A stretch of DNA of 64,000 nt, taken from the NCBI GenBank assembly GCA_040218735.1, contig JAVJQW010000050.1, positions 1 to 64,000 on the forward strand, given 5' to 3'. Each line of letters starts with the position of its first letter. Positions within the stretch are counted from its first letter, which is position 1. This document shows positions 1 to 23,962 of the stretch, piece after piece. The notes beneath the pieces are model-generated. The model did no database searches, was not told where the DNA came from, and worked only from the letters and a program-made list of their open reading frames with translations. This DNA comes from Deltaproteobacteria bacterium. GTDB taxonomy: Bacteria > Myxococcota > Kuafuiibacteriia > Kuafuiibacteriales > Kuafuiibacteriaceae. Both the position numbers and the translations under genes were made by a program.

Positions 1-95
1 TTGCTCACCACGTCGACGAGCTCCTCGATGAGCTCCACGCTCACCTCCAGAACGATGAACCGACCAGGAGAGGCTGCATTGTTTTTTCTGTTCAT
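1..95 (-). CDS. Four-helix-bundle protein (TIGR02436/23S-IVP/Avd-like), N-terminal part only; runs off window start
   Basis: Manual translation from ATG at 95: MNRKNNAASPGRFIVLEVSVELIEELVDVVS..., which aligns with the N-terminus of the 511..858 gene (RFVALDVALEMIRQLREPLA). GGAGGT directly upstream. Confidence 0.65.
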   Translation of the reverse strand, partial: MNRKNNAASPGRFIVLEVSVELIEELVDVVS

Positions 96-260
96 ACCTC
101 CCCCCGGCGCAGGCGGCGTGACGAACGGCCCTCCGTTCGGAAGGCTACTTTCAGTGGAATCTATTCGATGGCTCGGTCGTGCCGGGGAATCAGAATCACA
201 AGCCGATCGGCACGACGGTTGCGCCGCACATAAGGGATGAACAGAAAAAACAATGCAGCC
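72..260. repeat. Perfect 24-bp inverted repeat (72-95 / 237-260) duplicating the first 8 codons of the leftward gene
   Basis: ggctgcattgttttttctgttcat (72-95) is the exact reverse complement of atgaacagaaaaaacaatgcagcc (237-260). Imperfect extension to 63/270. Confidence 0.95.
208..222 (+). promoter_or_regulatory. Sigma54 (-24/-12)-type promoter
   Basis: CGGCACG-acgg-TTGC with exact GG-N10-GC spacing, 14 nt before the duplicated ATG at 237. Confidence 0.6.
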
Positions 261-410
261 GTCGCCCGGTAGCTCGGTGTGTGCACCTCAACCCAGAAGA
301 CGGAGAGAGAGTCCTCCCTCCGATCGAAGCGCCTCGCTCATGCCGAAGAAAGAACCTCTCCCGTCAAAGTGCCTTAGGGAGTTGAAACCATCCCCAGTGC
401 CACGACCCCC

Positions 411-534
411 GGCCGAGTTCTTGGTTGGGTTCACACCCATGAAGCGGCGCAACAGTCGCGCCAAGGACCGCAGACGGCCCTTGTCACGCCTCCTGCGCCG
501 AGAGGGGGGCATGAACCCAACCAAGAACTCGACC
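411..534. repeat. Inverted repeat (perfect 20 bp 414-433 / 512-531; 23 bp with one mismatch) duplicating the start of the rightward gene
   Basis: cgagttcttggttgggttca is the reverse complement of tgaacccaaccaagaactcg. Confidence 0.95.
449..463 (-). promoter_or_regulatory. Sigma54 (-24/-12)-type promoter
   Basis: Minus strand TGGCGCG-actg-TTGC with GG-N10-GC spacing, 14 nt before the duplicated GTG at 434. Confidence 0.6.
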
Positions 535-858
535 TACCGCTTCGTGGCGCTCGATGTGGCGCTGGAGATGATTCGTCAGCTCCGGGAGCCGCTTGCGAAG
601 ATTCGGACGCACGATGCGGATTTGGCGAAGCAGATCAGGAAGGCGGCAGCGTCGGTGCCGTTGAACGTGGCGGAAGGAAGCCGGCGCGCCGGGGGCGACA
701 GAGCGTATGCGTTCAGAGTTGCGCTCGGGAGCGCGGATGAAGTGCGCGCCGCGCTGATGTGCGCGGATGCGTGGGGGTACGCGGCGGCGGATGAGGAGCT
801 GCTGGCGACGCTGGATCGCTTGATGGGGCTCATCTGGGGCCTCGGCGGTAGGCGGTAG
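511..858 (+). CDS. Four-helix-bundle protein (TIGR02436 / 23S rRNA IVP family, Avd-like fold)
   Basis: 115 aa with family motif LAKQIRKAAASVPLNVAEG...AFRVALGSADEVRAAL...WGY. G-rich RBS before ATG 511. Confidence 0.88.
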   Translation: MNPTKNSTYRFVALDVALEMIRQLREPLAKIRTHDADLAKQIRKAAASVPLNVAEGSRRAGGDRAYAFRVALGSADEVRAALMCADAWGYAAADEELLATLDRLMGLIWGLGGRR

Positions 859-895: not shown

Positions 896-912
896 CCTCT
901 TCGATCGCGAAT

Positions 913-1092
913 CGGAAGCGGAGACGGAGACGGATTCGGAAGCAGAGACGGATTCGGACTCCGACTCGGATTCGGATTCGGATTCGGGATCGGATTCGGA
1001 CTCGGACTCGGACTCGGAAACGGGATCGGACTCGGATTCGGGATCGGACTCGGATTCGGAAACGGGATCGGAAACGGAAACGGACTCGGACT
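913..1092. repeat. Degenerate hexamer tandem array, 30 units of CGGANN
   Basis: cggaag cggaga cggaga cggatt ... cggact cggact, in unbroken 6-nt phase between the hairpin and the rbfA stop. Confidence 0.95.
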
Positions 1093-1119
1093 CGACCTCC
1101 GCCTCAGCCCCGCCGCCCC

Positions 1120-1536
1120 CTACTCCTCCTCGCCAGCCTCGCCCCCCTCCTCATCGCCGTCCCGCACCTCGCGCAAGATCGCCTCGATCTTCGCGCCCTC
1201 CCGGATCGACTCGTCCGCGAAGAACTTCACCTTCGGCGTGAACCGCAGCGCCAGCCGCGAGGCCACCTCGCGCTGCGTTGCCCCCGCGGCGGACTCCAGC
1301 CCCTCGAGCACGTCCTTTTGGATCTTCGCGTCGTCCGGGAAGATCGAGACGTACACGCGCGCCTGCTTCAGGTCCGGGGTCATCGCGACGTCCGTGACCG
1401 TCACGATCGAGGCCTCCTTCACGCGCGGGTCTTTGATGGCGCCCTCCAGCAGCATGTTCGAAAGCGCCTGGCGCATCTGTTCTCCCACCTGCGTGGGCCG
1501 CGCCTTGTTGGACGCCTTGGTTCGCTTCTTCGCCAT
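1120..1536 (-). CDS. rbfA: Ribosome-binding factor A
   Basis: IKDPRV...VTVTDVAMTPDLKQARVYVS...LRFTPKVKFFADESI; lies downstream of infB. Confidence 0.95.
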   Translation of the reverse strand: MAKKRTKASNKARPTQVGEQMRQALSNMLLEGAIKDPRVKEASIVTVTDVAMTPDLKQARVYVSIFPDDAKIQKDVLEGLESAAGATQREVASRLALRFTPKVKFFADESIREGAKIEAILREVRDGDEEGGEAGEEE

Positions 1537-23947: not shown

Positions 23948-23962
23948 TGGCACATCCGTTGC
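23948..23962 (+). promoter_or_regulatory. Sigma54 promoter of the CBS gene
   Basis: TGGCACA-tccg-TTGC, 13 nt before ATG 23976. Confidence 0.7.

Follow-up and report, generated by a model that had tools for sequence, protein, structure and literature searches.

Start-site palindromes with a sigma54-like core upstream of small selfish-type genes in Myxococcota

Why should a bacterial gene be preceded by an inverted copy of its own first codons? This question is raised by the left end of the DNA stretch studied here, which comprises the first 64 kb of a contig (C70, GenBank JAVJQW010000050.1) from the 11.6-Mb, 70-contig genome of a Deltaproteobacteria bacterium and is referred to below as the window. 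Two divergent genes for four-helix-bundle (4HB) proteins lie there, and each is preceded by such a copy. Genes of the 4HB (S23p/Avd-like) and DUF559 families are among the commonest unexplained small genes of bacteria and are known from rRNA intervening sequences. A preliminary description of the window proposed that the repeats either flank an invertible sigma54 promoter or belong to an RNA switch. As outlined below, the two structures are head-to-head copies of a conserved, widespread and undescribed portable 5' module, for which the name start-site palindrome is used. One hairpin module with a sigma54-like core stands before both gene families at more than 100 loci, and in the window it forms part of an insertion at a junction within an essential operon. 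The module offers a sequence handle on how such cassettes are expressed, silenced and moved, and its description removes a false lead, that of a phase-variable inverton.

Two palindromes over two start sites

The palindrome of the minus-strand gene will be called cassette 1 and that of the plus-strand gene cassette 2. In cassette 1 the inverted repeat joins 72-99 with 233-260 over 28 nucleotides (nt) that are 96% complementary, 24 nt of them perfectly so. In cassette 2 two 60-nt arms (411-470/475-534) are 75% complementary around a 4-nt loop, and their outer 20 bp (414-433/512-531) are perfect. The gene-adjacent arms are the first codons of the two 4HB genes, and the repeat search thus bears out the perfect inverted copies of each gene's own first codons that had been reported upstream of both. 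Each cassette is one long imperfect palindrome rather than a mere pair of terminal repeats. Both regions fold into a single long hairpin, as RNA or as DNA and on either strand, with z values of -6.8 to -11; none of 200 shuffled sequences was as stable as the native folds.

The ends of the two cassettes are alike. Next to the gene, both carry GTCACGCCnCCTGCGCCG followed by a G-run (97-122 versus 483-508, 85%), and both carry CGGCRCGACnGTTGCGCC at the distal end. These shared ends, noted in the preliminary description, are real and homologous, but the mirrored start codon of cassette 2 reads GTG, not ATG, with an A.C mismatch at 434/511. In cassette 1 the proximal and distal motifs also pair with each other (105-129 with 202-226, 80%).

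Comparison with other copies of the pair helps to separate what is general from what is peculiar to this one. The divergent pair is present three times in the genome: in the window, at C33:1-1075 (91% identity) and, mid-contig, at C66:240220-241285 (90%). The perfect 20 bp of cassette 2 are peculiar to the window copy, since the C33 and C66 copies and the contigs of all four public sequencing runs have C at 419. These runs were surveyed as Logan contigs, not as raw reads, and contigs drop rare variants. In cassette 2 of the C66 copy, two changes compensate each other (446 G>A and 499 C>T). Because the same structures lie mid-contig in C66, the repeats are not an artefact of a contig end or of assembly, and the fold-back artefact that had been considered as a source of them can be set aside. 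DNA to the left of the window is seen only through contigs C43 and C13, both of which overlap the first 96 nt of the window at 100%; the full open reading frame (ORF) of the minus-strand gene can be read in C66, C13 and C43.

A widespread module, its cargo and its setting

A search pattern built from the two core motifs was run over species-representative genomes and returned 119 instances in 117 stretches, nearly all of them in metagenome-assembled genomes (MAGs) of Myxococcota, with carriers in Anaeromyxobacter, "Polyangiaceae" and "Myxococcales". The pattern admitted hairpin tips of 15-45 nt; the tips of cassettes 1 and 2 measure 72 and 4 nt. Two contigs binned elsewhere also carry the core motif pair, L073 in a Micrococcales MAG, with a 4HB gene downstream whose ATG lies inside the stem, and L095 in a Planctomycetota MAG. 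Mis-binning or horizontal transfer could account for both. Searches with the proteins covered 20 genomes of the family, which make up the whole order and class as sampled, and 401 sampled genomes of the phylum. Homologues were found in 4 of the former and 25 of the latter; they are multi-copy, are often arranged as convergent or divergent pairs and often lie at contig ends. Upstream of homologues with 50-57% identity the same element can be found, with recognizable inner motifs and with outer stems that differ in sequence yet remain complementary. A relative from the same family (G002, 45% identity) has a 23-bp stem of unrelated sequence over codons 1-9.

Read 5' to 3' on the gene strand, the module consists of P1a, J1, P2a, P3, the tip, P3', P2b, J2 and P1b, followed by the gene. 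The outer stem, P1, has a median length of 25 bp and is perfect in 27 of 106 distinct copies. Between it and the core lies an internal loop of 5 x 7 nt (medians of 5 nt for J1 and 7 nt for J2). The core helix, P2, is 17 bp long and nearly invariant; it is formed by the arms GGCGCA-N6-GYGCC (P2a) and GTCACG-N3-CCTGCGCC (P2b), and is interrupted by three conserved mismatches, which are C.C, C.A and C.T on the gene strand. Helix P3 has 5 bp and covaries.

Several measures bear on whether pairing is conserved as such. The two outer arms of one copy score a median of 20.8 when paired with each other, as against 7.05 for arms taken from unrelated copies, and in every one of the 26 unrelated stem-sequence groups the stem fits its own gene. 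RNAalifold, applied to 43 representatives, predicts 28 pairs, of which 18 show double compensatory changes. The 3-nt spacer of the core covaries between its arms (CCC/GGG, TTT/AAA, CTC/GAG, CGC/GCG) and 284 of its 336 cells hold Watson-Crick pairs. For P3 the count is 535 of 560, with all four pair types in use. It follows from the own-arm scores and from the covariation of spacer and P3 that pairing itself is under selection; from the match of each copy to its own gene the preliminary description had concluded either this or ongoing conversion. The trait does not extend to the whole protein family. The genome's other two TIGR02436 genes (on C39 and C9) lack a palindrome, as do distant homologues, and the module is therefore the trait of one clade. 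A further 4HB homologue (L025, G083:C15) has only a perfect 22-bp stem with a 13-nt loop over the ribosome-binding site and no conserved core, and is a minimal form of the module.

No known family accounts for these structures. In Rfam 15 no model reaches its gathering score, the best being a plant microRNA-precursor model (38.6 bits against 268), a likeness of long hairpins only, and word searches of the literature found no description of the module. The cassettes of the window are two copies of one portable element, which belongs to small, selfish-type gene cassettes of Myxococcota.

The cargo of the module is not restricted to 4HB genes. Directly after the 119 instances lie 59 genes of the 4HB type, 41 of the DUF559 type and 19 of neither, 9 of the last group being cut by a contig end. 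All eight presumed DUF559 genes that were checked against Pfam match PF04480; four further ORFs of unknown type that follow the module have no Pfam match. The presence of the same module before DUF559 genes had gone unmentioned in the earlier work. In PADLOC the 4HB proteins match no defence family, and the DUF559 proteins give only a weak match to DpdF (E 0.0044). The protein of the plus-strand gene has as its nearest solved chain 2gsc_A (Xanthomonas XCC0516).

The translation start lies in the gene-side arm. Among 105 distinct copies, 62 have the ribosome-binding site within P1b and the start codon just after it. In another 20, which include the type seen in the window, the ATG stands at the top of P1b, and P1b encodes an N-terminal tail. 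The remainder comprise 18 classed as other, most of which have the start inside on inspection, and 5 with a weak P1. The sequence thus shows a hairpin over the start site, the structure on which one of the two RNA mechanisms first suggested would depend. The genome also carries a gene for RNase III.

The setting of the window copy is that of an insertion. To the left, C43 continues the window with the minus-strand gene, a hexamer array and truB; to the right follow the plus-strand gene, a second hexamer array, rbfA, a DUF503 gene and infB. In 17 of 18 relatives of the family the gap between rbfA and truB is 14-117 nt as measured by alignment ends, and in one it is about 950 nt. Given truB in C43 and the short gaps in relatives, the unit of about 1.65 kb made up of the pair and its two arrays has been inserted between rbfA and truB in the host operon nusA-infB-rbfA-truB, a point absent from the preliminary description. 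From this synteny we infer that C70 probably joins C43 rather than C13. The other two copies in the genome adjoin a TrkA-like gene and a carbamoyltransferase gene; the neighbours of the copies also include genes for proteins of unknown family. In relatives, units lie next to selA, next to amtB and a major facilitator superfamily gene (syntenic in two genomes), next to a sigma54 activator and relA, and once next to an insertion sequence (IS) transposase. The units are bounded by tandem arrays of 6-nt, GGAnTC-like repeats that vary between loci. The two arrays of a pair run in the same direction on both sides, in either orientation relative to the gene. Coordinates of the features at the left end of the window are collected in Table 1.

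Table 1. Features of the divergent 4HB pair and its flank (positions in the window)
Feature	Position	Strand	Basis or remark
Minus-strand 4HB gene, first 31 codons (117 aa in full)	1..95	-	TIGR02436; cut by the contig end, remainder in C43 or C13
Cassette 1, gene-side arm of P1: start codon and codons 1-8 of the minus-strand gene	72..99		Inverted repeat, folds
Cassette 1, gene-proximal core, GTCACGCCGCCTGCGCCG on the minus strand	105..122	-	Same motif in 119 instances elsewhere
Cassette 1, variable terminal hairpin region	130..201		Folds; variable positions of other strains fall mostly here
Cassette 1, gene-distal core with sigma54-like CGGCACG-N4-TTGCG	208..226	+	10/12; points right, to the plus-strand gene
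Cassette 1, distal arm of P1 (inverted copy of the minus-gene start)	233..260		Inverted repeat
Central spacer between the palindromes	261..410		Kept in the three genomic copies save for an indel at 319-331
Cassette 2, distal arm of P1 (inverted copy of the plus-gene start, GTG on the minus strand)	411..433		Inverted repeat, fold
Cassette 2, gene-distal core with sigma54-like TGGCGCG-N4-TTGCG	444..463	-	10/12; points left, to the minus-strand gene
Cassette 2, gene-proximal core, GTCACGCCTCCTGCGCCG	483..500	+	Repeat match to cassette 1
G-run resembling a ribosome-binding site, within the internal loop that separates P2 from P1	501..510	+	Sequence, fold
Plus-strand 4HB gene, 115 aa; 512-531 is the gene-side arm of cassette 2	511..858	+	PF05635 (E 3.8e-12), TIGR02436
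Tandem hexamer array, GGAyTC-type units	900..1094		Right end of the unit; partner array in C43 beyond the minus-strand gene, in direct orientation
rbfA, host gene beside the insertion (truB on the other side, in C43)	1120..1536	-	Synteny with relatives

Further observations concern the surroundings of these units. A GC-rich inverted repeat (861-877/886-902; 17 nt, 88%) lies between the stop codon of the plus-strand gene and the array and may be a terminator-like hairpin, though it has no T-run. The DUF503 gene occupies 1536-1832 on the minus strand, between infB and rbfA. Arrays of the (GGAnTC)n type are a genome-wide repeat class: 33 runs have six units or more, for the most part GGACTC, GGATTC and GGAATC, and examples besides the array at 900-1094 lie at C55:113480-113870, C66:162090-162560, C52:146245-146731 and C27:14567-14999. 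Several lie back to back in inverted orientation, with no gene between them, and would fold into hairpins whose arms measure about 150-250 nt. Only six of the genome's arrays flank the three 4HB pairs. In another genus (L171, G005:C5) a short GAATCC-type array without a cassette lies inside the 3' end of rbfA at the rbfA-truB junction; a deletion between direct arrays could have left it behind as a solo array, or it could have been there beforehand as a target. Elsewhere (L163, G369:C2:1203000-1219000) about 2.4 kb of DNA is enclosed by a large inverted duplication made up of two identical hairpin-4HB units, each with a DDE transposase gene beside it; the two transposase genes are likewise identical.

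Possible roles: translational lock, promoter or DNA site

The distal core resembles a sigma54 promoter. The consensus TGGCACG-N4-TTGCW is matched at 10 of 12 positions at 208(+) and 448(-), and the GG-N10-GC spacing is kept. Such matches number 435 in the 11.6-Mb genome and 4 in the window; a control on the reversed sequence gave more matches than the genome and cannot serve as a null. The other two window matches, also 10/12, lie at 23948(+) and 35864(-). In both cassettes the -12 GC stands 14 nt before the mirrored start, and the candidate promoter faces away from its own gene, in agreement with what had been described. Among relatives found through the protein, 8 of 11 have the antisense-strand motif at 9/12 or better. 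The opposite strand of P2a reads TGGCGCG-N4-GTGCG in relatives and ends in TTGCG in the window. Of the conserved core mismatches, two coincide with -24 and -22. There the distal arm retains the GG required by sigma54, at a cost in pairing, and the proximal arm reads GT. The motif is always on the gene-distal arm. The genome has rpoN and about 100 matches to the sigma54-activator domain. In the divergent pair each motif faces the other gene, the predicted starts being at about 234, toward the ATG at 511, and at about 437, toward the ATG at 95, a relation that had been overlooked. A scan of 1-1300 found no sigma70-like promoters and no terminators.

How might these parts work together? The reading we favour, tentatively and with rather less than even confidence, is that the module is a portable hairpin that locks the translation of read-through transcripts, and that its core is a promoter which, in this locus, faces the partner gene. 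A transcript entering the cassette from outside, for example by read-through from nusA-infB-rbfA, would carry both arms and would fold the palindrome. The start site would then be buried in a stem of -75 to -130 kcal/mol, and because of this burial the cargo gene would not be translated from foreign transcripts. Transcripts of the rbfA operon would run antisense through the plus-gene unit and in the sense direction through the minus-gene unit. The distal core would serve as a sigma54-type promoter pointing away from its own gene, so that in a divergent pair two such promoters would face each other, each reading into the partner gene. Anatomy, conservation, covariation, constant orientation and insertion are observed; the lock and the promoter activity are predicted.

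Several points weigh against this scheme. In some relatives, cassettes lie between convergent genes behind a terminator-like hairpin, where read-through may be rare. An outward promoter in a convergent pair or a single unit would have nothing but the array and the neighbour's terminator ahead of it. The motif of relatives is weaker (9/12, with GTGC for TTGC), and no sense promoter is visible in the scan of 1-1300. A simple lock gives no reason for the core sequence, with its three mismatches, to be conserved from one class to another, and stems of -75 to -130 kcal/mol have no obvious route to being unlocked. Finally, a stem that acts purely at the RNA level is expected to tolerate G-U pairs, and G-U is not enriched on either strand.

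This last point depends on how mismatches are counted. A first count in the outer stem gave 80 sense A.C against 14 sense G.T; collapsed to 26 clusters, the figures were 41 and 10, and with gapped arm alignment they were 89 and 23, with 119 others. In 77 of 106 cases the hairpin as a whole folds more stably as the antisense strand. Folding of the antisense strand was considered as an explanation of the wobble skew and rejected, since the distal arm is biased toward G and T, which occupy it in 64% of pairs. If the distal arm alone is assumed to drift, its rates per opportunity are 60/525 for T>C, 11/98 for A>G, 29/963 for G>A and 12/730 for C>T. The rates that would create wobble on the sense strand (A>G) and on the antisense strand (T>C) are equal, which argues for GC-biased drift and not for wobble tolerance. 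In P3 and the spacer, which are free of coding constraint, 11 sense wobbles, 13 antisense wobbles and 53 other mismatches occur in 896 cells. Wobble is equally rare both ways; the constraint therefore looks strand-symmetric and of the Watson-Crick kind, and it fits a DNA hairpin, or transcripts in both directions, better than an RNA stem of one strand.

Such strict pairing, with no strand-specific tolerance of wobble, is also what a DNA-level site would show. Here the hairpin would form in single-stranded DNA or as a cruciform and would help the cassette to move or recombine; that it overlaps the start site would be a matter of compaction. That one module accompanies two unrelated cargo families, that the unit has several copies, frequently at the ends of contigs and in non-syntenic places (among them an operon junction), and that three core mismatches are conserved are all in keeping with it. 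So is a likeness, by analogy, to attC sites and to the end hairpins of IS200/IS605, in which structure is kept, sequence varies and unpaired bases are read by a protein. However, no integrase, HUH transposase or reverse transcriptase lies beside the copies examined, no attC core sites are visible in the inspected sequences, and the palindrome is inside the repeated unit, whose ends are the hexamer arrays. Moreover, in 82 or more of the 105 distinct instances the translation start lies on the gene-side arm, which a pure recombination site would not require. We regard a DNA-level site as unlikely, though the least so of the alternatives.

A question that the lock leaves standing, how so stable a stem could be opened, is addressed by a second alternative, in which the outward sigma54 promoter makes a key, or anti-antisense, RNA. 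This RNA would begin with a copy of the gene-side arm, continue as antisense to the upstream flank and pair with the distal arm of the locked mRNA, freeing the start in response to a signal; it comes near to the decoy RNA of the preliminary description. DsrA, which unlocks rpoS, is a precedent. The 14-nt distance of the -12 GC from the mirrored start in both cassettes would suit such an RNA, as would an internal loop of median 5 nt, which places the predicted start within the first bases of the distal arm, the constant orientation of the motif and the very many sigma54 activators of the organism. Against it, invasion of a perfect intramolecular stem of 20-35 bp is kinetically hard. Neither the mirrored start codon nor any mirrored frame is conserved, an indel between copies breaking the frame and the distal arms of relatives lacking CAT. 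The RNA would for this reason be non-coding; a mirrored small ORF was considered separately and rejected on the same grounds. On balance a key RNA seems improbable.

Slightly more doubtful still is a fold-back promoter, which would achieve by the geometry of folding what the preliminary description had sought from inversion. When the template strand folds, in single-stranded DNA or a cruciform, the distal sigma54-like motif would come to lie before the gene, as the non-template strand of a promoter directed down P1, whereas in linear duplex the same core would fire away from the cargo. Replication, uptake or a mobile intermediate would provide the single-stranded occasions. The internal loop (5 x 7 nt) would provide a bubble that is already open, transcription would start at the top of P1b, and the mRNA would lack the blocking arm. 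The geometry is suitable in the window (14 nt from GC to ATG), in the Anaeromyxobacter type (a 5' leader of about 25-30 nt with a ribosome-binding site) and in the same-family relative G002, where the motif is in the tip. The pairing statistics are DNA-like. Where a cassette stands between convergent genes, it must be driven by its own promoter, and the sense strand shows none. The Frpo single-strand promoters offer a precedent (PMC11541004). But the folded helix would have G.A at -24, G.T at -22 and G.G at -15, sigma54 polymerase is not known to use such a template, tips of 15-70 nt make cruciform extrusion unlikely, no single-stranded stage of life is known for these cassettes, and the minimal form L025 keeps P1 with no core. 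If it did operate, a fold-back promoter would be the sigma54 counterpart of Frpo on chromosomal selfish cassettes and would tie the expression of the cargo (4HB or DUF559 nuclease) to the physical state of the DNA. Either a structure-dependent promoter or a source of unlocking RNA would, if true, be a new kind of gene control.

Hardly credible any longer is the invertible sigma54 promoter, in which a recombinase would flip the segment between the outer repeats and turn the gene on: a sigma54-like motif, directed away from the nearest gene, does lie between inverted repeats of 20-28 bp, but the sigma54-like arm lies beside the gene in none of 100 gene-linked instances, none of the genome's six cassettes is flipped, the contigs of the four runs that bridge 95/96 (X1, X3, X5) and 236/237 (X5) are all in reference orientation (which addresses only common flipping, as low-frequency variants would be dropped), no joints at cassette borders occur in the Logan contigs of these runs, the flanked segment is, unlike that of known invertons, itself palindromic, and no site-specific recombinase, integrase or reverse transcriptase was found beside the copies examined, including leftward through C43 and C13. 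Joints on opposite strands at 1-600 and 3-598 reflect the similarity of the two paralogous genes and not inversion.

Comparison with known systems

The closest described system is the intervening sequence (IVS) of 23S rRNA that bears an S23p ORF, as in Coxiella and Leptospira, with a 28-bp stem in Coxiella (PMC4990558). The two have much in common. The cargo family is the same (PF05635/TIGR02436), the IVS is likewise regarded as a selfish insertion in highly transcribed DNA, and it has a long, near-perfect stem within which the ribosome-binding region lies beside the start of the ORF. They differ in architecture. The IVS stem forms the ends of the element, encloses the ORF and is cut by RNase III, whereas here both arms lie 5' of, or over, the first codons. 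The IVS sits in a helix of 23S rRNA; the present copies sit in the rbfA-truB junction and, elsewhere, between protein genes. In addition, the present units have a conserved sigma54-like core, are bounded by direct, not inverted, hexamer arrays and can carry DUF559 as an alternative cargo.

For the translational lock proposed here, fold-back inhibition in IS10 and IS50 is the nearest analogue. In these elements an upstream sequence pairs with the translation start of the transposase, so that transcripts from outside are not translated, and the native promoter of IS10 lies inside the pairing region and points at the gene. By analogy, the upstream sequence of the module would pair with the start and block outside transcripts in the same way. 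The difference lies in the promoter, since no sense promoter is visible here and the sole promoter-like motif points away.

Promoter elements within a hairpin are known from Frpo/ssi, the single-strand promoters of plasmid leading regions, which have sigma70-type -35/-10 boxes and act at a single-stranded stage of transfer; when folded, their hairpins mimic duplex DNA just upstream of genes (PMC11541004). An imperfect hairpin directly upstream of a gene on mobile DNA, with promoter elements in the stem, is common to both. The present motif is sigma54-like, its context is chromosomal, and its function is a prediction.

Another comparison is with attC sites, which lie 3' of their ORF, have RYYYAAC/GTTRRRY core sites and need IntI. 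Like them, the module is an imperfect palindrome with conserved structure, variable sequence and tip and conserved unpaired bases, and it is associated with small promoterless ORFs. Here, in contrast, the palindrome is 5' of the ORF, inspection without a formal attC model shows no core sites, and no integrase lies beside the copies.

The hexamer arrays, for their part, recall the GGGAATC-type heptamer repeats of Xanthomonas and Nostoc, which form intergenic tandem arrays, some of them as inverted pairs, and have been discussed as G-quadruplex formers (PMC4692102). Both are intergenic tandem arrays of GGANTC-like units, and the nearest solved relative of the 4HB protein is Xanthomonas XCC0516. 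The heptamer repeats have a period of 7 and, in the available part of that account, no described link to 4HB genes; the present arrays have a period of 6 and bound the cassette.

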